Of a stretch of 64,000 nucleotides of DNA, positions 28,101 through 40,937 are shown one piece after another (positions within the stretch are counted from its first letter, which is position 1; every line of letters starts with the position of its first letter). The DNA lies in NCBI RefSeq assembly GCF_058153355.1, contig NZ_CM177019.1; one strand, 5' to 3'. The notes under the pieces are model-generated. The model saw nothing but the letters and a program-made list of their open reading frames with translations, made no database searches and was not told the DNA's origin. The position numbers and the translations under genes are program-made.

Positions 28101-28751
28101 TTAATTTGATTTATTCGCATCCATCAACGCTTTTAACTGCTCCGGCGAAAACGGTGGTTTGCGTCGGTGCAACATCGCATGGCAATTAGGGCACACAGGA
28201 AGCAAATCATTAACTGGATCCAGCTGGTAATCCTCTTTAATGGCTGAAAGCGGCACCAGGTGATGCACATGGATAAAGCCTTCAGCGATATCACCATAGA
28301 TCTTCACCAGATCAACGCCGCATACTTTGCACTGGCATCCATGATGTTCGACCGCTTTATCTCGGGCCTTTTTATCGCGTTCATAGCGGTTTACTGTCAC
28401 CTTTATCGCCGCACCTTCAAGGTATGTCTCCTGCGACGGCAACTCATCCGGGAACAGAACGTCGGCTATGGGAGCCGCAGCGGCTTTATCCTGATGAATA
28501 TGAAATCCCTGCTCTATGAGTAGTTTGACGCATTTAGATTTTATTCCGCCGGTGAAATCCGCAGGGGTAAATTGCGTCCCCGTCATCAATGTCGCTGCGA
28601 TGCCAGCAATCGCCTTCGAGGGGTAACGTCGGCCATGATATTCAATCTCATACAACCGCGCAGGCTGGAACTGATGAGTTTCTCCCGCATCCCATAAATG
28701 GATAGCTTCGATGATATACCGCCGCGGAAGATGATCAGGGAGTTTATTCAT
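28101..28751 (-). CDS. HNH-family endonuclease (216 aa) with an uncharacterised N-terminal domain
   Basis: C-terminal CxxC...HVHHLVPLS...N...CPNCH zinc-finger/HNH motif; N-terminal ~130 aa not recognised; convergent with nanS (7-bp gap). Confidence 0.7.
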   Translation of the reverse strand: MNKLPDHLPRRYIIEAIHLWDAGETHQFQPARLYEIEYHGRRYPSKAIAGIAATLMTGTQFTPADFTGGIKSKCVKLLIEQGFHIHQDKAAAAPIADVLFPDELPSQETYLEGAAIKVTVNRYERDKKARDKAVEHHGCQCKVCGVDLVKIYGDIAEGFIHVHHLVPLSAIKEDYQLDPVNDLLPVCPNCHAMLHRRKPPFSPEQLKALMDANKSN

Positions 28752-28887
28752 GGAGAATGTCCTTATACGTTCTCAGAACAGGCAGCAAAAAAACAAATGA
28801 GATCAAGGTAATATATCTTCACTTGCAGGCTTGAACAGCAGAAAATTTGCGAGCATGATCGCAATTATTTCACTGCCAGGGATATCA

Positions 28888-29760
28888 ATGGCTTCCAGTA
28901 AATCGCTACAGCAGGCAATTGCCAACATAAAAATCTGGCACAAGGGTGAACAGCGCGCGCCGCATAAGCCATTGTTACTGCTATACGTATTAGCGGGATA
29001 CCTGAATGGACATCCGCGCCTTTTCGATTATGGCTCGGAAATCTACGAACCTCTGCACAGTTTACTGGAACGTTTTGGGCCACAGCGTTCACAGTACCGA
29101 CCTGATATGTCGTTCTGGCGATTACAAGGCGACGGATTCTGGCAATTACACAATGCCGAACTTTGCTCAACAGCAGGGAGTAGCCGACAACCGCCAGTGA
29201 AGGAACTGACCGAACACCGCGTTGCAGGCGGTTTCGATGAACAGCACTATGCCCTGGTAATCGGCAATAAAAAACTCATCAATACCCTAGCGCAACAGAT
29301 ACTCGAAGCGCACTTCACCGAGAGCATTCAGGAAGAAATTGCTGACGAGCTGGGTTTTGATCTCCAGCAAATCCGTAAACAGCGCGACCCGTTATTTCGC
29401 AAAAATGTATTACGCGCTTATAAATACCAGTGCGCGATATGTGGCTTTAATATGCGCCACGACGACACCACCGTCGCGTTGGAAGCGGCGCATATAAAAT
29501 GGAAACAGCACGGCGGTCCTTGTGAAATTCCTAATGGCCTGGCGCTTTGTGCAATACACCATAAAGCCTTTGATAAAGGATCGATTGGCCTGGATGAAAA
29601 TATGCGGGTACTGGTCTCGGATGCGGTAAACGGCGGAGGGATCGTTGAGAAACTATTCTGGGATTTTGACGGGAAAACTATTGCGTTACCACAGGTGCGT
29701 AAAAATTACCCTTTTGAGGGGTTTGTGGAGTGGCATCGAAAAGAGGTTTTTAGGGGGTGA
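28888..29760 (+). CDS. HNH nuclease-domain protein (~290 aa from ATG at 28888; ORF track begins at a TTG at 28831), candidate modification-dependent restriction endonuclease
   Basis: C-terminal CAICGF...EAAHIKW...NGLALCAIHHKAFD motif resembling the HNH_2-type nuclease fold; AGGGA Shine-Dalgarno before 28888; N-terminal domain unassigned. Confidence 0.65.
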   Translation: MASSKSLQQAIANIKIWHKGEQRAPHKPLLLLYVLAGYLNGHPRLFDYGSEIYEPLHSLLERFGPQRSQYRPDMSFWRLQGDGFWQLHNAELCSTAGSSRQPPVKELTEHRVAGGFDEQHYALVIGNKKLINTLAQQILEAHFTESIQEEIADELGFDLQQIRKQRDPLFRKNVLRAYKYQCAICGFNMRHDDTTVALEAAHIKWKQHGGPCEIPNGLALCAIHHKAFDKGSIGLDENMRVLVSDAVNGGGIVEKLFWDFDGKTIALPQVRKNYPFEGFVEWHRKEVFRG

Positions 29761-29761
29761 G

Positions 29762-29817
29762 GTAGGCTATCTTGTGCATACAAATAGACAAATAAATTGT
29801 ATAAAGAGATAGCCTAC
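29762..29817. terminator. Inverted repeat (GTAGGCTATCT ... AGATAGCCTAC) between convergent genes; possible bidirectional terminator
   Basis: 11-bp perfect inverted repeat with ~34-nt AT-rich loop seen in sequence. Confidence 0.3.
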
Positions 29818-29822
29818 AAATA

Positions 29823-31133
29823 CTAAATAAATTCAGCCCCACTAGGAAAACGCAACTCTGATGTCTGTAAACTCTCGCCAATAAAGAAAGGTACAACCCA
29901 TAAACGTAACCTATTTTCCTTCTGATGGCTAAATTCATAAGGATGAGGAGATGGCTGATTAAATCCGTTATGATAGGGGTATATCAAAATCATATCACCT
30001 TCCCCCTCCTGGTAATTCAATCCATAGGCAAGCATTTGGTAGAGATCGGCTTGAGATTGCTCAAGACTGTCCTTTCTGCCATTAACTATCTTCCATTTAA
30101 CATCACAGGTAATAACTGAACCAGTAGTACTTTTACGAGGCCGTAAACAAATATCAGGCCGCAGCTTAAATAAAGCTTTACCGTTATAACTAATCAGATT
30201 TTTTGAACTTACCTGTGCGTCCACTCGCCATTTATCATAATAACGATAACGCATCCATGTCGTCACAAAAGATTCAAAAACAGCCTCCATCGGGAAAAGC
30301 AGTGAAAAAGCATTAACATCCCCATACATACAGTGTGGAGAATCGCCCAATAAAATCATCTTCGCCCACGCTAATGCTTGCTCATAGTGATGCATTTGTC
30401 TATCAAAGTGTAACTGCTCGAAAGCTATATAAGCATCATGAACTGACGTGATATTTTCAAAGTGAAACTGCAGCTGTGTTATCTGCTGTAATAATTGTGG
30501 ATTACTGGTCTGGCGACTAATCTTATTGATTGCAGTTTTGAGTATCCGGTTTTCCAGACGATTGACGCTGTACTCGTCATACTCTACCTGAAAACGATCC
30601 CGCCTAATACAGTTTTTGCTTAATTGTGCAGAGATCCGTAATCTTCCTTTCATCCATGGAAGATTATCTTCCTGACGTAAATAGTCACGTTTTAACCCTC
30701 TCTGCACAATCTTACGCACGCTCTCTATAAATTGTTGAATAAAGATATCCATCAGAGGCATTTTAGATATTTTGACGCCAGATTCAGAGGAGGCAATATG
30801 ACGAAATGATTTTAACGTACGTAACATCATCAGTAATTGTTGACGAACAGTATCCTCATTATCCTGACCTGTTTTAGGCAGGATTTCGAGAAATCGCCCC
30901 CCTGGCAGTGAGATTACTCCTGCATAGTTTTTTACCTGCAGCGTTTTTACTCCATTCCGGCTGCTAAGGGTGAGCAAACGATGAGTATTATCAGCATCGT
31001 CTTTCAGACAGCGCAGCTCAAGCCATTTAAATAGGTCTGCAGGTAGCACTACCGCATTATTTATACGGGCATCACCTTCCTCACTCACTAAATGCCCGTA
31101 TTCGAACACAGTGAAATGACTGGAAGATTTCAT
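29823..31133 (-). CDS. McrC-like nuclease subunit of a McrBC-type modification-dependent restriction system (start at MKSSSHF; ORF track TTG start at 31199)
   Basis: ATG overlaps the stop of the upstream McrB-like gene (ATGA overlap); size and position typical of McrC; sequence is not the K-12 McrC. Confidence 0.7.
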   Translation of the reverse strand: MKSSSHFTVFEYGHLVSEEGDARINNAVVLPADLFKWLELRCLKDDADNTHRLLTLSSRNGVKTLQVKNYAGVISLPGGRFLEILPKTGQDNEDTVRQQLLMMLRTLKSFRHIASSESGVKISKMPLMDIFIQQFIESVRKIVQRGLKRDYLRQEDNLPWMKGRLRISAQLSKNCIRRDRFQVEYDEYSVNRLENRILKTAINKISRQTSNPQLLQQITQLQFHFENITSVHDAYIAFEQLHFDRQMHHYEQALAWAKMILLGDSPHCMYGDVNAFSLLFPMEAVFESFVTTWMRYRYYDKWRVDAQVSSKNLISYNGKALFKLRPDICLRPRKSTTGSVITCDVKWKIVNGRKDSLEQSQADLYQMLAYGLNYQEGEGDMILIYPYHNGFNQPSPHPYEFSHQKENRLRLWVVPFFIGESLQTSELRFPSGAEFI

Positions 31134-33184
31134 TCCGCACTCCTGCGTTTTTCTTTTTGAGGTGCATAAATTTGCTGCCAGGCGATTGGATTGTCCCAAA
31201 CGTTGTCATCCTCTGCTGCCAGGTGAAAACTGGTTCCCAAGTCATCTGTTCCGTTATCACCAAAGAGATCGGCATACTTTTTCTGGTATTTCACCTCACG
31301 TACAAATTGAAGATCTGGTGCTTCCTCTTTTTGGTTATCAGCCAGTACCATGCGAATTTTTTGCCAGTCATTGTAAAAATATTCTTCCAGCAATGGTAGT
31401 ATCTTATTTCGCATAATCCGTTTGAATCTTTCAAATGCCAGAGCTTCGTCTTCTTTTGCCTGCACAACAGGGATAAAAAAAGCATGCCCCAGCATATGTT
31501 CTCTATCGTATAAAACCTGGATGCGATCGTTAAGCGTCTGCAATAGACGAGGCAGATCAATACCTTTAATGACAGTATCTTTCAGAACAGTAATATCTGG
31601 CAGCATCGCTTCAAAATCAAATCTGCGACGTAGTGCAGTATCAAGTGCAGTAAGCGAATGATCAGCAGTGTTCATGGTACCAATTAAATAAAGGTTATTC
31701 GGTACACTAAATGGAGTGGAAGAGTATGGCAGCAATACGCTAAGCGATTCTGGCTCACCAGCCCGTTTAGATGGCTCAATAAGGGTAATTAGTTCACCAA
31801 AAATTTTTGAAATATTACCCCGATTTATTTCATCAATAATGAGAACATAGTTTTCCTTTTTTTCTGAAGCTACGCTCTGAGTATTCAGAGGCAGATAACG
31901 TTGATTAATTAAATAGTTAAGGATACTGCGTACATAAGATGGATTATGTACTTTTGCTCGTGGATCCTGATAAACTTGCCGAATATCCTTCAAATAGGCA
32001 TTGTAACCCTGTCCTAAATCCTCTTTTTTCGATTGTGACGGAAAAATTCCAAAGTTGGTTTGACTTTTATACGTCAGCTGGAAGGCCTTACCCTGTTGTG
32101 TTTCCAGCGTGATATTTTCACCTTCAGATAAACGTTCTTGTAGGCGAGTAAGTGCGCTATCCAACATTTCCTGCGCACCAGCATGACCAAAGGCGGCATC
32201 CTCGCATATCTGTTTAAAAATACCTGCCTTTATTTCGTATTTTACATTACCGTCATCAGTAGTCTCAGCTCTTAAACCTTCAATAAACTCTTCATAACCA
32301 AAGCTCTGATGAAAGGTGATAAAACGCACTCGATTATCTTTGATAAGCTGATCATAAATCTTTTTCAACTCGCGACGTTTTTCACTCTCATCCTTACCCT
32401 CCTGCAGGGAGTAAGCGATCGGATCACAAATTTGTACAGCAAGCTCAATAGTACGATATGTTTTACCTGTACCTGGCGGGCCATAGAGAATTGTGTTTTT
32501 AGGCAATGGCGAACTTATAACATCATCTTCTTGCTCATTTTCTTGTAAAGCACTTTCGCTTCCAACTAAACCGATAGCATTTTTATCCTGAATTTCATAC
32601 GCATAGAGATGCCAAAGTGACATATTCAGCTCAATAGGGTCGATATCATCACCCAGCGCACGATTTAGCGTTTCTTTAAGATCAACATTGCGAGCCAGCC
32701 ACTCCCGTTCTCCGGAAAGACCTAGCTGGAAATGGTTGTTGCAATAATTGTAGCAACTAAAAAAATTATTAACATTCACGACACTGCTAATTTTTGATGG
32801 GTATATTGCTGCAAAAGCACGATTACAAAGAGCCCTATATACCTTATTTAATACTCCGTCCGCTTTAAGTTTGATAAGACGTTCAATGACCCGATTATAA
32901 TTTTCTTGTGTACACTCTTCTGCTATCTGACGGGTGAGCGTTAGAAGGTCTTTTTGTGCATTTTCAAATTCAACCAATGACATCCCACCTTGCATCAGGC
33001 TGGAGACACCATTGTCACGTTCATACCATACCTGCCGAATCGTGGCTTCAGAAAAGTTTGGTTTTTCGGCCTGAATCTGTTCTACAAGCTCGCGGTAGTG
33101 TTTGCCCCAAACTGAATTGTATTGATTATTTTTTTCAATTTGAGCACGAAAGAAGGGGGCTAATGCTGATGAATCCTGAACCAT
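31130..33184 (-). CDS. McrB-like AAA+ GTPase subunit (684 aa) with a divergent ~230-aa N-terminal domain
   Basis: Walker A LYGPPGTGKTY and McrB-signature MNTADHS...RRRF motifs; N-terminal region has no resemblance to the K-12 McrB DNA-binding domain. Confidence 0.78.
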   Translation of the reverse strand: MVQDSSALAPFFRAQIEKNNQYNSVWGKHYRELVEQIQAEKPNFSEATIRQVWYERDNGVSSLMQGGMSLVEFENAQKDLLTLTRQIAEECTQENYNRVIERLIKLKADGVLNKVYRALCNRAFAAIYPSKISSVVNVNNFFSCYNYCNNHFQLGLSGEREWLARNVDLKETLNRALGDDIDPIELNMSLWHLYAYEIQDKNAIGLVGSESALQENEQEDDVISSPLPKNTILYGPPGTGKTYRTIELAVQICDPIAYSLQEGKDESEKRRELKKIYDQLIKDNRVRFITFHQSFGYEEFIEGLRAETTDDGNVKYEIKAGIFKQICEDAAFGHAGAQEMLDSALTRLQERLSEGENITLETQQGKAFQLTYKSQTNFGIFPSQSKKEDLGQGYNAYLKDIRQVYQDPRAKVHNPSYVRSILNYLINQRYLPLNTQSVASEKKENYVLIIDEINRGNISKIFGELITLIEPSKRAGEPESLSVLLPYSSTPFSVPNNLYLIGTMNTADHSLTALDTALRRRFDFEAMLPDITVLKDTVIKGIDLPRLLQTLNDRIQVLYDREHMLGHAFFIPVVQAKEDEALAFERFKRIMRNKILPLLEEYFYNDWQKIRMVLADNQKEEAPDLQFVREVKYQKKYADLFGDNGTDDLGTSFHLAAEDDNVWDNPIAWQQIYAPQKEKRRSAE

Positions 33185-33542
33185 CTCTTAATCCAATATG
33201 TAGGGGGGAGGGAAATTGGGATAGCCTTATCTTATCGGATTAATCTCAAAAATGTTAAATTTTATGATAAAAAAAAACTTTCATCCTGAAATTACCTTCT
33301 GCCCTGGAGCCGCCACATTTATCTGATGACTTTGAACTGCAAAACGCATGGTGTTGGTGGTTCTCAGAGAAGGCCATAGCATTCTTTCAGACGTAAAATC
33401 GCTACTCGTTTTTCAACCTGTGTGCATTTTCTAGTTGCATAGGGAATCAACTGTTTTTCAGGTAGGTATTGTTTACAGTAAATGGATATGCCGAAATTCA
33501 GAGGGTTCCAGTAACGACATTTTGACAGCAAACATACGACAT

Positions 33543-34376
33543 TCATTTTGCTGATAACGCTGACGGATAGTGCTTCGCCACAATGTCATTCATCTTATCC
33601 ACCAGATCCAGTCGCTTGAATGTGATGTGTCCACTGCCTTTCTGGTAATAGCGGATGACAAATAAATCGTCATTAAATACCTGCTCATGCGGGTGAGCAC
33701 TAACGAAGTCCATAAACCGAATCGCAACATCATGCCGGTTATCGGGAATGGCCTTCCCATCCAGCAGATAGAACATCCGTTCCAGATCGGCAAGCTGATC
33801 TCGCCGCCAGCCCCAGTGCAGGCTGTAACCCCATCGGTCATGCTTCACCAGATTGTTAACGATAATCTTCTTACCGAAATAACAGGGATTATTGGTTTTG
33901 TAATCCCAGCTCAATCCCTTAAATACATTGATAATCCCACGTTCGAAAACGTCATGCTTATTGTGGTGGAGTTGTTCAAAGGTACTCAGGATGTTGGCTT
34001 CGCTAATCGCCGGGAGATCGCCCTCCTCCAGGTTCTTTGCCCACTGACTGCGGGCTTCGGCATCCATCAGAGTCAACATCCCGGACTTCAGCATGAGATC
34101 GCGCCAGATGCTGCGATCGATATTGCGGGTGATCGCCGACATCGCTTTGTCGGTTGGTTGCATCAGCCAGCAGTCAAAGGCATATCCATTACGCATTCCC
34201 CAGGTTCCAGCCACATCACCGCCAATACTGGATGTCAGACTGGAGATATCATCCAGTTTTTGGATTAGCGTCGCTATCAGCTTCAGTGCGCTATCACGTC
34301 CTGTGACGATACGCTCAATATTGGTCGAGCGAATTATCTCGTTGTGATCGGTTAAGACTTCAGCTTCTGTTTGCAT
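33543..34376 (-). CDS. Hypothetical protein (277 aa), same strand and upstream of the McrBC-like pair; possibly a DUF4942-type protein (low confidence)
   Basis: Uninterrupted ORF, no recognised catalytic motif; located inside the defence island. Confidence 0.5.
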   Translation of the reverse strand: MQTEAEVLTDHNEIIRSTNIERIVTGRDSALKLIATLIQKLDDISSLTSSIGGDVAGTWGMRNGYAFDCWLMQPTDKAMSAITRNIDRSIWRDLMLKSGMLTLMDAEARSQWAKNLEEGDLPAISEANILSTFEQLHHNKHDVFERGIINVFKGLSWDYKTNNPCYFGKKIIVNNLVKHDRWGYSLHWGWRRDQLADLERMFYLLDGKAIPDNRHDVAIRFMDFVSAHPHEQVFNDDLFVIRYYQKGSGHITFKRLDLVDKMNDIVAKHYPSALSAK

Positions 34377-34682
34377 AATCTTTCATCCGTAAAAAAATAC
34401 ACTCGCCGTTAGTAGCAGACGGATTATCCTCTGGTGAAAGATTGGGTAAATAATGAGATTGAAAATCGGGAAGGTGACTCGCAATAAATTATCTGATCAC
34501 CTACGGATGGACGATGGGCATATAAAATAGCCTCCTGACTCAAACGGTGAATGCTGAATAAGATGCACTAACAATCTGGTACTGAATCCCCTCCTCACCG
34601 TCATACAAATCTGAAAAACCAAAAAACTTCCGGTAAAATCCCGGCAAAAGCCGACGTTAAAAACACATTCAAAGGATAAAAA

Positions 34683-36239
34683 ATGACCAGTCTTCAGCAG
34701 CGCGCGGAGCTTCATCGCCAAATCTGGCAAATTGCTAACGATGTCAGAGGTTCGGTCGATGGATGGGATTTTAAGCAATACGTTCTGGGCGCGCTTTTCT
34801 ACCGTTTTATCAGCGAAAATTTTTCCAGCTATATTGAAGCCGGTGATGACAGCATCTGTTATGCGAAACTGGATGACAGCGTAATTACTGATGACATTAA
34901 AGACGATGCCATCAAAACCAAAGGCTACTTCATCTACCCAAGTCAGCTTTTCTGCAACGTAGCTGCGAAAGCAAATACCAATGACAGACTGAACGCAGAT
35001 TTAAACAGCATCTTCGTTGCTATCGAAAGTTCTGCTTACGGTTACCCTTCAGAAGCTGACATCAAAGGTTTGTTTGCTGATTTCGATACCACCAGTAACC
35101 GCCTGGGTAATACCGTTAAGGATAAAAATGCCCGCCTGGCCGCGGTTCTGAAAGGGGTTGAAGGGTTAAAGCTTGGCGACTTTAACGAACATCAGATTGA
35201 CCTGTTCGGCGATGCCTATGAGTTCCTGATTTCTAACTATGCGGCGAATGCCGGTAAGTCAGGCGGCGAGTTCTTTACACCGCAGCACGTCTCTAAGCTG
35301 ATTGCACAACTGGCTATGCACGGGCAGACCCACGTTAACAAAATCTACGACCCGGCAGCGGGTTCCGGTTCGCTGTTGTTGCAGGCTAAAAAGCAGTTTG
35401 ATGACCACATCATCGAAGAAGGTTTTTTTGGTCAGGAAATCAACCATACGACCTATAACCTGGCGCGTATGAACATGTTTTTGCACAACATCAACTACGA
35501 CAAGTTTGATATCAAGTTGGGCAATACGCTGACTGAGCCGCACTTCAGAGATGAAAAACCGTTTGACGCCATCGTATCTAACCCACCGTATTCGGTGAAA
35601 TGGATAGGCAGCGATGACCCGACGCTGATTAACGATGAACGTTTTGCCCCGGCTGGCGTCCTGGCCCCCAAATCAAAAGCTGACTTCGCCTTTGTACTAC
35701 ATGCGCTGAACTATCTTTCTGCCAAAGGTCGTGCTGCGATTGTCTGCTTCCCGGGTATTTTTTACCGTGGCGGCGCAGAGCAGAAAATCCGTCAGTATCT
35801 GGTTGATAATAACTATGTCGAAACCGTGATTTCACTGGCTCCGAACCTGTTCTTTGGCACCACCATTGCCGTCAATATTCTGGTGTTGTCTAAACATAAA
35901 ACCGATACCAAAGTTCAGTTTATTGACGCCAGCGAACTATTCAAAAAAGAGACTAACAACAACATTCTGACCGATGCCCATATCGAACAGATTATGCAGG
36001 TATTTGCCAGCAAGGAAGATGTTGCTCATCTGGCGAAATCTGTCGCGTTTGAGACCGTTGTCGCTAATGACTATAACCTGTCGGTAAGCAGCTATGTGGA
36101 AGCGAAAGATAACCGCGAAATTATCGATATCAGTGAGCTGAATGCTGAGCTGAAAACCACGGTCAGCAAAATCGACCAGTTGCGTAAAGATATTGATGCG
36201 ATTGTGGCTGAAATTGAAGGCTGCGAGGTGCAGAAATGA
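34683..36239 (+). CDS. hsdM: Type I restriction-modification system methyltransferase subunit HsdM (type IC, EcoR124-like)
   Basis: 518 aa; N6-adenine MTase motifs ([10 protein letters not shown] motif I; IVSNPPYS motif IV); closely resembles recalled EcoR124I HsdM. Confidence 0.93.
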
Positions 36240-37390
36240 ACGAGTTGAGTTATCTGGAAAAATTACTGGATGGGGTTGAGGTTGAGTGGTTGCCATTGGC
36301 TAAAGTTTGTCGTTTAATAAACGGGAGAGCATATAAGCAAGAAGAACTGCTTTCCAAAGGCAAATATCCAGTATTAAGAGTCGGTAATTTTTTTACTAAC
36401 CAAAATTGGTATTACTCAGATTTAGAATTAGATCAAGACAAGTATTGTGATAACGGTGACCTTTTATATGCTTGGTCCGCATCATTTGGTCCAAGAATTT
36501 GGCATGGGGGTAAATCTATTTACCATTATCACATATGGAAAGTGGTTCCAGATTCGAATCTTATTTGTAAACAGTTTCTATATTACTTGTTACAATGGGA
36601 TACTAAAGCACTTAAAGATGCACATAGCACTGGTTCTACTATGATGCACATCAGCAAAACTACAATTGAAAAAAGGTTAGTCCCCATCCCCTGCCCGGAT
36701 AATCCGGAAAAATCCCTTGCCATCCAGTCTGAAATCGTTCGGATTCTGGATAAATTTACTGCACTTACCGCTGAGCTTACCGCTGAGCTTAATATGCGAA
36801 AAAAACAGTACAACTACTATCTCGACCAGTTACTGAATCTTGAGGGTAGGGAAAATACTCGAGAAATGAGGATAGGTGATATTTATGATTTTCAGTATGG
36901 AACAGGCAATACAATTCCTAAATCTGGAGGGCAATATCCTGTTTATGGTAGCAACGGGATTGTAGGCTCCCATGACAAATATAACAGCGAAGACTCACCT
37001 GTTATTGGCCATATAGGTGCTTACGCAGGAATCGTTAACTGGGGCCAGGGTAAGCATTTTGTTACATACAACGGAGTTATTTGTAGGCACAAATCGAAGG
37101 AAGTTCTTCAAAAATACGCCTACTATTTATTACTTTTACAAGATTTCGGTTCAAAATCTAATAGTGCATCACAGCCTTTTGTTTCATATAACATATTAAA
37201 TGCTCCTATTGTTTTGGTTCCCCCTTTACAAGAGCAAGCTCGTATCGTCGCAATACTCGATAAATTCGACACCCTGACCAACTCCATCACCGAAGGTCTT
37301 CCGCGTGAAATCGAGTTGCGCCAGAAACAATACGAGTACTATCGTGATTTACTGTTCAGTTTCCCAAAACCTGAAACTCTCAGTAATTAA
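36236..37390 (+). CDS. hsdS: Type I R-M specificity subunit HsdS (type IC) with two target-recognition domains
   Basis: 384 aa; conserved central ([35 protein letters not shown]) and C-terminal ([33 protein letters not shown]) type IC regions flanking variable TRDs; 4-bp overlap with hsdM. Confidence 0.9.
36764..36787 (+). repeat. Two tandem copies of a 12-bp unit (CTTACCGCTGAG) encoding TAEL-TAEL in the HsdS central conserved region
   Basis: Perfect 12-bp tandem duplication seen in sequence; in type IC systems the copy number of this repeat sets the spacer length of the recognition site. Confidence 0.85.
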
Positions 37391-37511
37391 TTGACCATTA
37401 TTACAGACCGGACCATCTTAATATCCGGTCAGTATATAGACTATTTTTTACACGCCGGAAGTCACCATTAACCCCCTTCCGGCCCTTGCCAGACGGCACA
37501 AAGGATGCGCT

Positions 37512-40500
37512 ATGACTCATCAAACACACACCATTGCTGAATCCAATAACTTTATCGTTCTTGATAAGTACATCAAAGCTGAGCAAACAGGCGACAGCTA
37601 TCAGAGCGAATCGGACCTGGAACGTGAACTGATTCAGGACCTGCAAAATCAGGGCTATGAATTTATACCCGTAAAATCACAGTCAGCGATGCTGGCCAAC
37701 GTTCGGGAACAGCTTCAGAGCCTCAATGGTGTGGTGTTTAATGACAGCGAGTGGCGGCGTTTCACGGAGCAGTATCTGGATAACCCGAGCGATGGCATTC
37801 TGGATAAGACCCGTAAAATCCATATCGACTATATTTGCGACTTTATTTTTGATGACGAGCGACTTGAGAACATCTATTTGATAGATAAAAAGAATCTCAT
37901 GCGCAATAAGGTGCAGATTATCCAGCAGTTTGAACAGGCGGGTTCCCACTCTAACCGCTATGATGTCACGATCCTGATTAATGGCTTACCACTGGTACAA
38001 ATCGAACTGAAAAAGCGCGGCGTGGCGATTCGTGAGGCTTTCAACCAGATACATCGTTACAGTAAAGAGAGTTTTAACAGCGAAAATTCCCTGTTTAAGT
38101 ATCTGCAACTGTTTGTCATTTCTAACGGCACCGATACCCGTTACTTTGCCAACACCACAAAGCGCGATAAAAATAGTTTTGACTTCACCATGAACTGGGC
38201 GAAATCAGACAACACGCTGATTAAAGACCTCAAAGATTTTACCGCTACCTTTTTCCAGAAACATACTCTGCTTAATGTTCTGGTGAACTACAGCGTGTTC
38301 GATATTAGCCAGACGCTACTGGTGATGCGACCGTACCAGATTGCCGCCACCGAACGAATCTTATGGAAAATCAACAGCTCCTATAAAGCGAAAAACTGGT
38401 CTACCCCCGAAAGCGGTGGCTTTATCTGGCACACCACCGGTTCCGGTAAAACCCTGACCAGCTTTAAAGCTGCGCGTCTGGCAACAGAGCTGGACTTTAT
38501 TGATAAAGTCTTCTTCGTGGTCGACAGAAAAGACCTCGATTACCAGACCATGAAGGAATATCAGCGTTTTTCGCCAGATAGTGTTAACGGTTCGGAAAAT
38601 ACCGCAGGCCTGAAACGAAATCTGGATAAGGACGATAACAAAATTATCGTCACCACTATTCAGAAACTTAATAACCTGATGAAAGCAGAAAGCGACCTGC
38701 CTGTATACAATCAGCAAGTGGTGTTTATATTTGATGAATGTCACCGCAGCCAGTTTGGAGAAGCGCAGAAAAACCTGAAGAAGAAATTCAAACGCTATTA
38801 TCAGTTTGGTTTTACCGGCACACCTATTTTCCCGGAAAACGCTTTAGGCTCAGAAACGACCGCCAGCGTATTTGGTCGTGAATTGCATTCGTATGTGATT
38901 ACCGATGCGATTCGTGATGAAAAAGTGCTCAAATTCAAGGTGGACTATAACGATGTGCGGCCACAATTTAAGTCTTTAGAGACAGAAACCGACGAGAAAA
39001 AACTGAGTGCGGCTGAAAATCAGCAGGCGTTTCTTCATCCCATGCGTATACAGGAAATTACGCAATATATTCTGAATAACTTCCGCCAGAAGACCCACCG
39101 TACTTTCCCAGGTTCCAAAGGCTTTAATGCCATGCTGGCAGTGAGTAGCGTGGATGCCGCGAAAGCCTATTACGCGACGTTTAAACGGTTACAAGAGGAA
39201 GCCGCTAATAAATCTGCTACCTATAAACCACTACGTGTTGCGACAATCTTCTCCTTTGCCGCTAATGAAGAACAAAATGCCATTGGTGAAATTTCCGATG
39301 AAACTTTTGATACCAGCGCAATGGACAGCAGTGCTAAAGAGTTTCTCGACGCTGCAATTCGTGAATATAACAGCTATTTTAAAACTAACTTCAGTACCGA
39401 CAGTAACGGTTTTCAGAACTACTATCGTGATTTAGCCCAACGGGTTAAAAATCAGGATATCGATCTGTTAATTGTCGTTGGGATGTTTTTAACCGGCTTC
39501 GACGCTCCAACATTGAACACGCTATTCGTCGATAAAAACTTGCGTTTTCACGGCCTGATGCAGGCATTTTCCCGCACCAACCGCATTTATGACGCCACTA
39601 AAACCTTCGGTAACATCGTCACTTTTCGGGATCTGGAACGCTCAACCATTGATGCCATAACGCTGTTTGGTGATAAAAATACCAAAAATGTGGTGTTAGA
39701 AAAGAGTTATGCCGAGTATATGGAAGGCTTTACAGATGCTGCCACTGGTGAAGCTAAACGCGGCTTTATGGCAGTAGTTTCAGAACTGGAACAACGGTTC
39801 CCTGACCCTGCCAGTATTGAAAGTGAAAAAGAGAAGAAAGACTTCGTTAAACTGTTTGGTGAATACCTGCGCGCCGAGAACATCCTGCAAAACTATGATG
39901 AATTTGCCACGCTGAAAGCCCTGCAACAAATCGATCTTAGCGATCCTGTTGCGGTAGAAAAATTCAAAGCAGAACATTATGTGGATGATGAAAAGTTTGC
40001 TGAATTACAAACGATTCGTCTCCCTGCTGAACGTAAGATTCAGGATTATCGTTCGGCCTATAACGATATTCGTGACTGGCAGCGCCGCGAGAAAGAAGCT
40101 GACAAAAAAGAAAAATCAACCACTGACTGGGATGACGTGGTTTTTGAGGTCGATTTGCTGAAGTCTCAGGAAATAAACCTGGATTATATCCTTGGACTGA
40201 TTTTCGAACACAACAGACAAAACAAAGGTAAGGGCGAAATGACCGAAGAGGTCAAACGCTTAATTCGTTCGAGCCTTGGGAACCGTGCCAAAGAAGGCCT
40301 GGTGGTCGATTTTATTCAACAAACGAACCTGGATGATTTGCCGGATAAAGCCAGTATCATTGACGCGTTCTTTATCTTTGCTCAACGCGAACAGCAACGT
40401 GAAGCAGAAGCGTTGATTAAAGAAGAAAATCTCAATGAAGAAGCAGCGAAACGCTATATTCGCACGTCTTTAAAACGCGAATACGCCACCGAAAATGGCA

Positions 40501-40628
40501 CAGAATTAAACGAGACGTTACCAAAACTTAGTCCGTTAAACCCGCAATATAAAACGAAAAAACAGACGGTTTTCCAGAAGATCGTCGCGTTTATTGAGAA
40601 GTTTAAAGGTGTAGGCGGGCAGATATAA
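37512..40628 (+). CDS. hsdR: Type I restriction enzyme R subunit HsdR (type IC, EcoR124-like), 1038 aa
   Basis: SF2 helicase motifs ([24 protein letters not shown]) and N-terminal nuclease region; near-identical over long stretches to recalled EcoR124I HsdR. Confidence 0.93.
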
Positions 40629-40852
40629 TGTATTAATCCGAACCTGATCTGGCAGATAGCTGTCAGATCAGGACTGAGCTAATACAAATTAATATCGAAC
40701 CGAAAATACCAACGCCTGTACCAACATTTTTCGTTTGCGATGGGTTGAAATTGGTTGGCTCTGAGAGAGTTAAAATAGCGAGAAAGATAGGTAACTAATG
40801 GATCCCAGACACAAAAAAAGCCGCCCTTGAGCGACTCGATTTGCATACGATG

Positions 40853-40937
40853 TGGTGCCGAAGGCCGGACTCGAACCGGCACGTATTTCTACGGTTGATT
40901 TTGAATCAACTGCGTCTACCGATTTCGCCACTTCGGC
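40853..40937 (-). tRNA. leuX: tRNA-Leu (anticodon CAA), leuX
   Basis: 85-nt sequence on the minus strand matches recalled leuX (GCCGAAGTGGCGAAATCGGTAGACGCAGTTGATTCAAAATCAACCGTAGAAATACGTGCCGGTTCGAGTCCGGCCTTCGGCACCA); its 3' end faces the island. Confidence 0.95.

Follow-up and report, generated by a model that had tools for sequence, protein, structure and literature searches.

We report the analysis of a 64,000-nucleotide stretch of DNA from NCBI RefSeq assembly GCF_058153355.1 (contig NZ_CM177019.1; the whole of this stretch is referred to as the window), in which a pair of genes on the minus strand, at positions 29,823 to 33,184, is, to judge from its sequence, an intact anti-phage restriction system of the McrBC type within an Escherichia coli defence island. 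McrBC is the textbook modification-dependent restriction enzyme and, to our knowledge, few McrBC reader domains have been characterised, these being the MrcB_N, YTH, EVE/PUA and B3 domains. The McrB-like GTPase of the window begins with an all-helical domain, and the reading that we favour, and hold to be probable though some way from assured, is of a McrBC-type modification-dependent (Type IV) restriction system equipped with a sensor of hypermodified phage bases that resembles a disabled DNA glycosylase. An earlier reading made from the letters of the DNA alone (the sequence-only reading) had supposed that this pair restricts a modification different from that restricted by the McrBC of E. 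coli K-12. That the N-terminal domain sets a modification specificity other than that of K-12 is plausible, and this supposition gains support because the domain is found fused directly to NucS-like PD-ExK and HNH nucleases and because it resembles the HhH-GPD glycosylases.

The two genes, with lengths of their products in amino acids (aa), and the overlap that joins them are as follows.

31130..33184, minus strand: mcrB-like gene, with its ATG at 33184 and its stop at 31130, 684 aa; candidate sensor domain, linker and McrB-type AAA+ GTPase.

29823..31133, minus strand: mcrC-like gene, 436 aa; finger domain (DUF2357-type) and PD-(D/E)xK nuclease; Pfam McrBC PF10117.

31130..31133, minus strand: ATGA overlap of the mcrB stop and the mcrC start, read from the sequence; translational coupling.

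The translational coupling proposed by the sequence-only reading is borne out, the ATG of mcrC at 31133 lying inside the overlap with the TGA of mcrB. The mechanically called open reading frame of mcrC opens at a TTG at 31199; the actual start is the ATG at 31133, with which the RefSeq start agrees. An identical 4-nucleotide overlap is present in the Enterobacter and Aeromonas homologues, and the operon order, mcrB followed by mcrC on the same strand, is kept at every homologous McrB locus examined. The locus is 99.5% identical throughout to that of enteropathogenic E. coli (EPEC) E2348/69 and of many further strains, which places the window in an E. coli chromosome, and the mcrB-like product is 100% identical to the RefSeq cluster 'McrB family protein [E. 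coli]', which has 2170 member sequences. Scans for promoters and terminators gave counts not above those of shuffled sequence, and a literature search for the RefSeq accessions of the pair found no mention of them. Every defining feature of a McrBC system that is testable in sequence is found in the two predicted proteins, beginning with those of the GTPase.

31325..32509, minus strand: McrB-type AAA+ GTPase core with lid, aa 226-620; AAA_5 match, with invariant Walker A, Walker B, NxxD and RRRF motifs.

32459..32482, minus strand: Walker A motif GPPGTGKT, aa 235-242, from the translation; invariant in the alignment.

31661..31675, minus strand: McrB signature MNTAD, of the NxxD type, aa 504-508, from the translation; invariant in 30 homologues.

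It was on the GPPGTGKT and MNTAD motifs that the pair had first been recognised as McrBC-like and both are confirmed by translation, as are a Walker B motif, IDEINR (aa 450-455), and the RRRF motif (aa 519-522). The closest solved structure to this McrB is the AAA+ domain of the T. gammatolerans McrB, TgMcrB (E=1.2e-52 by sequence and E=7e-21 by Foldseek); the K-12 McrB is a remoter relative (E=4e-29), whose AAA+ core is ~25% identical, and the structural match extends to both TgMcrB and the E. coli protein, EcMcrB. The score of 116.8 bits lies below the 637-bit cut-off of NF008457, the NCBIfam equivalog for the K-12 protein. The AlphaFold2 (AF2) model of full-length McrB has a mean pLDDT of 89.5, and precomputed Pfam annotation finds the McrB_lid family, PF28529, on proteins of exact identity and on related ones. 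The Nx(x)xD motif is the signature of McrB and is needed for GTP hydrolysis (PMC11090510), and its spacing also bears on the nature of the target: NxxD marks the DNA-targeting clades of McrBC and NxD the RNA-targeting CoCoNuTs (PMC11090510). A CoCoNuT-like derivative of McrBC that targets RNA was considered since the CoCoNuTs form a large branch of McrBC, and nothing more specific speaks for it; the motif here is NxxD (MNTAD) rather than NxD, and neither the model nor the Pfam scans contain a coiled-coil, CSD or HEPN domain. Motif and architecture together effectively refute an RNA-targeting system, to which we attach a negligible probability.

The nuclease subunit is as readily classified, and two of its features matter for the mechanism set out below.

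30096..30158, minus strand: nuclease motif P326-D327 … D344-V-K346 of McrC, from the translation; aligned with 'TDITIR…VDAKYYK' of the K-12 McrC.

30399..30401, minus strand: Arg245 of McrC, which lies in a gapless block opposite Arg263 of the T. gammatolerans McrC, TgMcrC (6ut5_G); invariant in six homologues.

McrC matches the Pfam family McrBC (PF10117) with E=3.8e-100 and its closest solved relative is the T. gammatolerans McrC (E=3.8e-18). That the protein differs from the K-12 McrC, as had been noted from the sequence, holds: it scores 107.8 bits against the 338-bit cut-off of NF007277 and matches the K-12 protein (6hz4_M) with E=3.8e-6. The PD-(D/E)xK motif, on whose presence the earlier proposal depended, is intact, and P326-D327, D344-x-K346 and a QxDxYQ stretch are invariant across six McrC homologues of 31-58% identity. 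In the T. gammatolerans enzyme Arg263 of McrC stimulates GTP hydrolysis by McrB (PMC7680126).

The part of the system that sets it apart from K-12 McrBC lies at the N-terminal end of McrB.

32573..33184, minus strand: N-terminal all-alpha domain, aa 1-204, from the AF2 model; a candidate modified-base sensor with an HhH-GPD/EndoIII/Ogg-like fold.

32510..32572, minus strand: disordered acidic linker, aa 205-225, from the candidate sensor domain to the GTPase ring; pLDDT below 50 at residues 204-221.

The sequence-only reading had described an N-terminal region of ~230 aa, unrelated to the 5-methylcytosine (5mC) reader of K-12. The lack of relation holds, both in sequence and in fold class; the single ~230-aa unit does not, the region being a folded domain of 204 aa with a linker of 21 aa, the latter only 0-33% identical among homologues. 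The fold prediction that had been suggested as a check gives a confident all-alpha model, for which the isolated domain has a pLDDT of 94.4, a pTM of 0.90 and nine to ten helices without a sheet. Its best structural matches are Ogg, EndoIII and MutY, the top match being of the Ogg type.

The search for remote homologues, also suggested at that stage, gave a divided answer, with a resemblance to HhH-GPD glycosylases by structure and no informative family by sequence. Pfam, run on the full McrB and on 35 family members, leaves the N-domain without any family and gives no MrcB_N/DUF3578 match even at E<=10, and neither NCBIfam at E<=10 nor PADLOC has an informative family for it. Nor does a more recent precomputed Pfam annotation reach the N-domain, being confined to the AAA+ core and to PF28529; this last family, tried for the N-domain, was ruled out as being McrB_lid. 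Searches of PDB sequences with the single sequence and with two profiles returned for the N-domain designed helical proteins and noise only, and among them there was no high-identity match to a characterised McrB homologue, which the sequence-only reading had named as the kind of finding that would speak against it.

The structural resemblance takes on meaning beside a recent report. Yee et al. (bioRxiv 2025, PMC12191111) describe the END nucleases, a set of defence enzymes that sense hypermodified bases by means of an EndoIII/Ogg-like domain devoid of catalytic activity (iEndoIII). Among the fusions of iEndoIII that they report are one to a NucS-like PD-DExK nuclease, which was tested and found to restrict phages whose G is modified, and one to 'the McrB-like GTPase' (PMC12191111); the McrB fusion is shown there only in a domain diagram and was not assayed (PMC12191111). 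The combination of McrB with a helical sensor is, then, already noted in the 2025 preprint (PMC12191111). Taking the Ogg-type top structural match together with the fusion partners of the domain, which are described below, we assign the window pair, with moderate confidence, to the END/iEndoIII sensor family as a McrBC-type member.

When 1.84 billion representative proteins were scanned with phmmer, 128 relatives of the N-domain were found. In 93 homologues of the McrB type the module is a constant unit of ~165 aa, running from W26 to W191 and ending ~40 residues before the Walker A motif, and W53, R122, W162 and N187 are invariant in the alignment of these proteins. There are, besides, GTPase-free proteins of 346-530 aa in which the module is followed by a C-terminal domain with the pattern D…(L/I)YE(I/V)K…GQLLEY; this D…ExK domain of the short fusions has weak matches to NucS and to LmuA, the nuclease of Lamassu, and one such PD-ExK fusion is located between hsdS and hsdR in Jeongeupia. 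In a further protein (P0228) the module precedes an HNH domain of the phosphorothioate restriction endonuclease type, and in AFDB50 it is also present in a DUF262 protein. A profile search of a 5.8-billion-protein collection with a broadened alignment gave 17 matches and neither fusions to a phospholipase D (PLD) domain nor true glycosylases, the reach of this search being limited by its word prefilter; a PLD fusion of the module was not recovered in the 1.84-billion phmmer scan either. As its sequence relatives indicate, the N-domain is a conserved and widespread module and not an idiosyncratic, divergent reader. In proteins of 346-390 aa that end in the D…ExK nuclease the module is all that there is besides the nuclease domain, and across the family it is joined to McrB, PD-ExK and HNH effectors alike; it behaves in this respect as a target-recognition unit that can be passed from one Type IV enzyme to another.

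If the module derives from a glycosylase, the fate of the catalytic residue is of obvious concern.

32774..32776, minus strand: Asn137 of McrB, the proposed counterpart of the HhH-GPD catalytic Asp, from the translation; matched by eye, without statistical support.

By eye, the segment 109-DGVLNKVYRALCNRAFAAIYPSKISSVVN-137 is similar to the EndoIII motif at 115-138, a register that puts Asn137 at the catalytic Asp, and we treat this match of 'GVLNKVYRALCNRAFAAIYP…VN' to the HhH-GPD motif of EndoIII as a lead and not as evidence. In the McrB-type homologues the column holds N, D, Q, K, R, A or I; in the PD-ExK fusions it is mostly D ('HTTVD'). The N-domain appears, in this register, to be catalytically disabled, with Asn137 standing where Asp would be and the position variable across the family. 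The PD-ExK-fused branch (P0184, P0212, P0213, P0218, P0220, P0227 and others; alignment A4) keeps the stretch 'PRLLIARAFAAIHP..YHTTVD', with Asp at the position of Asn137, and if the glycosylase register is right a base-excision activity might persist in these single-chain fusions.

Several results weigh against the N-domain being a reader of glycosylase descent. The Pfam HhH-GPD family is matched by none of the 35 N-domain family members; hhalign of the family profile with E. coli Nth (the sequence of which was checked against 2abk) gives a probability of 0.2% and an alignment that is out of register; the family hidden Markov model (HMM) gives negative scores to both Nth and MutY; and a profile search of the PDB sequences matched zero glycosylases. 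We infer homology to the published iEndoIII domain from the matching fold and fusion partners, not from sequence. Furthermore, roughly half of the 93 McrB homologues carry an additional 95-507 aa on the N-terminal side of the helical module, which Pfam recognises as MrcB_N in two homologues and as EVE in one, and in the proteins with such extra domains the helical module might act as an adaptor rather than as a reader.

The last of these points leads to a rival reading, in which the N-domain would be a structural, assembly or regulatory adaptor, which positions readers or contacts McrC or the ring, and targeting by the E. coli protein, which has no further reader domain, would reside elsewhere, for example in the AAA+ domain, or would be weak or non-specific. 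A second candidate for the specificity element does exist in the AAA+ domain and was missed by the sequence-only reading.

31850..32182, minus strand: alpha/beta insert peculiar to the family, aa 335-445 (~110 aa), which lies in the large subdomain of the AAA+ domain, after the helix-2 hairpin and ahead of Walker B.

The insert makes itself felt in the AAA_5 match, in which model positions 30-54 are spread across ~175 residues of McrB, and has an alpha/beta secondary structure in the AF2 model; no significant match to it (aa 335-445) was found among PDB sequences. In most homologues it is ~120 aa long and in some it is absent but for ~13 aa. It is also the most variable and fastest-diverging of the folded segments of McrB, with 13-77% identity among homologues, and has apparently been swapped in some of them, in which it retains 13-20% identity against 65% in the core. 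Bell et al. have suggested that inserts in the GTPase encode specificity domains, and the insert is a possible second specificity element or DNA-contact module here. Its variability, together with the additional upstream domains of so many homologues, is what an adaptor role for the N-domain has in its favour. The N-domain, for its part, has changed more quickly than the GTPase core (in Enterobacter it retains 51% identity, the core 77-78%), and the fast divergence of both domain and insert fits recognition surfaces under the pressure of an arms race, which it does not prove.

What tells against an adaptor is that the minimal proteins of the family consist of the domain and a nuclease only (P0212 with 346 aa, P0227 with 349 aa and P0220 with 363 aa) and offer no other candidate for DNA recognition, that the invariant Trp, Arg and Asn residues of the domain would suit a ligand pocket, and that tandem readers are common among Type IV enzymes. 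We regard an adaptor role as unlikely and return to the N-domain as a sensor of modified bases.

A working model can be put together on this basis. Judging from the solved McrBC complexes to which the two proteins are homologous, McrB would form a GTP-bound AAA+ hexamer whose ring is threaded by the finger domain of McrC, with Arg245 expected to stimulate GTP hydrolysis and the nuclease residues D327, D344 and K346 expected to cut the DNA. Six sensor domains on flexible 21-aa linkers would scan the DNA until one of them binds a non-canonical (hypermodified) base of incoming phage DNA, probably by flipping it and without excision, the flipped base being held in a pocket that the invariant Trp, Arg and Asn residues may line. 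Binding of the base would anchor the complex, to be followed by GTP-driven translocation and double-strand cleavage by McrC. The anatomy of the genes, their motifs, the homology of motor and nuclease, the predicted class of fold, the fusion partners of the domain and its setting in a defence island are shown here; we infer the sensor role of the domain, its glycosylase ancestry and inactivity, the flipping of the base and the class of modification. With the END nucleases as a guide, hypermodified bases seem likelier targets than simple methylation, and the Dam, Dcm and type I methylation of the host must presumably be tolerated by the system. A bolder form of this proposal, which we put forward tentatively as a possibility that may well prove wrong, is a motor-driven END system, in which a disabled sensor with the glycosylase fold would respond to a broad range of hypermodified bases (e.g. 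7-deazaguanine derivatives or glucosylated 5-hydroxymethylcytosine, glucosyl-hmC) and pass the DNA on to a McrBC translocase-nuclease powered by GTP, and the AAA+ insert would serve as a second, swappable specificity element. Were this true, a single McrBC chassis would read modifications via two independent modules, and motor-driven END systems would have in the E. coli pair their first accessible representative.

The surroundings of the pair are those of a defence island, of which the following features were identified.

40853-40937, minus strand: leuX, tRNA-Leu(CAA), which bounds the defence island.

28831-29760, plus strand: phosphorothioated-DNA-binding HNH endonuclease (NCBIfam NF045808, 432 bits against a 180-bit cut-off), convergent with mcrC and 62 bp from it.

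28101-28751, minus strand: ScoMcrA-head/HNH endonuclease of 216 aa, residues 24-87 of which match the head of S. coelicolor McrA (5zmm, E=2e-5) and the HNH domain of which matches E. coli McrA (6ghc).

33543-34376, minus strand: DUF4942 gene (PF13708, E=1.4e-68), co-oriented with mcrB and lying 358 bp upstream of it.

34683-40628, plus strand: type I restriction-modification (R-M) system, in the order hsdM, hsdS, hsdR, from the genes of the window.

The pair lies inside a 12.6-kb segment of low GC content (28101-40700; 43.5% against 48-50% in the flanks), between nanCMS and leuX, and this island replaces the KpLE2-type element of K-12. The leuX locus has been described as a defence hotspot of E. 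coli (PMC12707154). In the window the interval from hsdR to leuX is free of integrase genes; E2348/69 has an integrase-bearing element beyond hsdR. Elsewhere in the window, positions 8001-9000 and 57001-58000 have a GC content of 33%, against 45-55% around them.

Of 5426 complete E. coli genomes, 284 (~5%), EPEC E2348/69 included, have the whole pair, which is chromosomal in every case. Orthologues at 40-62% identity are found in Enterobacter, Vibrio, Aeromonas and Thalassotalea, with McrC always immediately downstream and often beside a type I R-M system. The frequency of this last association, with type I hsdM/hsdS adjoining the homologues in the same orientation in Vibrio and Aeromonas as well as adjoining the pair in the window, raises the question of whether the system could be LlaJI-like, attacking an unmodified recognition sequence and relying on the neighbouring type I HsdM for self-protection. 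In the window itself hsdM is divergent from the pair, with the DUF4942 gene between them, and the mcrBC of K-12 has an equal type I neighbourhood without depending on it. The orthologous pair of Enterobacter kobei (62% identity), moreover, is surrounded by housekeeping genes only, and a methyltransferase is absent for 8 kb around; this speaks for a pair that suffices by itself and would tell foreign DNA apart without a cognate methyltransferase. Dependence on the adjacent type I methylase is rejected on the ground that the pair stands alone in Enterobacter, and we think a LlaJI-like mode of action very improbable.

In two Vibrio loci (L002 and L007) the order hsdR-hsdM-hsdS-mcrB-mcrC-(112 aa)-YjiT-YjiV mirrors that of the immigration control region of K-12 with another McrB reader, and one of them (L002) has a second pair, of an AAA_5 protein (787 aa) and a 588-aa protein, upstream. 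E. coli also possesses a second, paralogous pair of McrB (691 aa) and McrC, the helical N-domain of which is only ~37% identical (locus L011, CP054241.1 470412-473766; also AFDB A0A179QNG9). The pair at L011 adjoins a DNA cytosine methyltransferase gene and its 834-kb 'plasmid' record resembles a chromosome fragment.

Of the neighbours in the window, the DUF4942 protein was tried as a third subunit and rejected on its absence from every non-E. coli homologous McrBC locus examined; it probably stands outside the McrBC system. The ScoMcrA-head/HNH protein is probably another modification-dependent nuclease, in which case the island would have three Type IV-like enzymes side by side; its gene is split or shortened in E2348/69. 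The RefSeq start of the phosphorothioate HNH gene is later than ours, giving 290 aa and not 309, and the 3' end of this gene is found in ~315 further E. coli genomes without the McrBC genes. The hsdS product has 384 aa against 408 aa in E2348/69, which suggests a different target-recognition variant.

We know of no McrBC-type END system that has been characterised so far. A glycosylase-derived reader on a McrBC enzyme would join the repair glycosylase folds that have been drawn into antiviral defence with promiscuous sensing of hypermodified phage DNA, here in an enzyme that depends on GTP and translocates. The system may affect the host range of therapy phages with modified DNA (T-even, Seuratvirus/Nonagvirus and similar phages) and the transformability of strains that carry it and, if its specificity is broad, it is a possible reagent for the detection of unknown DNA hypermodifications. 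Its presence in E2348/69, a standard pathogenic strain of E. coli, makes it a worthwhile subject for further study.

Amongst the known systems, K-12 McrBC shares with the window pair the two-gene arrangement with mcrB first, an AAA+ domain with Walker A and B and NxxD motifs, a McrC composed of finger and PD…DxK parts, and a place in a defence island near a type I R-M system. The K-12 reader, MrcB_N/DUF3578, which binds 5mC and 5-hydroxymethylcytosine (5hmC), is absent here and the 204-aa all-helical domain stands in its place; the window GTPase has the extra insert of ~110 aa and the window McrC has 436 aa against 348 aa in K-12; and the window locus occupies the leuX hotspot, whereas that of K-12 lies in the hsd-mcr-mrr immigration control region. 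With the T. gammatolerans McrBC (PDB 6UT3-6UT8) the window pair has in common the FITFHQS(F/Y)(G/S)YEEFIEG region of the helix-2 hairpin and the stimulatory arginine of McrC. The N-terminal domain of TgMcrB, which is YTH-like and has been reported as a reader of N6-methyladenine (6mA), has no likeness to that of the window protein, and the sequence matches between the two begin at the AAA+ domain.

LlaJI likewise consists of a McrB-like NTPase and a McrC-like nuclease, and its N-terminal domain for binding DNA is also non-canonical; in LlaJI this is a B3-type domain, the site is unmodified and two cognate methyltransferases are needed, whereas the window system has no B3 domain. The END nucleases (END-PaCF1 and END-Mag) are close in the nature of the putative sensor: the family of the window protein shares with them both fusion partners, the NucS-like PD-ExK nuclease and the McrB GTPase, and the best structural matches of its domain are Ogg, EndoIII and MutY. 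The characterised END nucleases are single-chain PLD or PD-DExK enzymes without an NTP-driven motor, whereas the candidate sensor of the window would feed its signal to a GTP-dependent McrBC machine.

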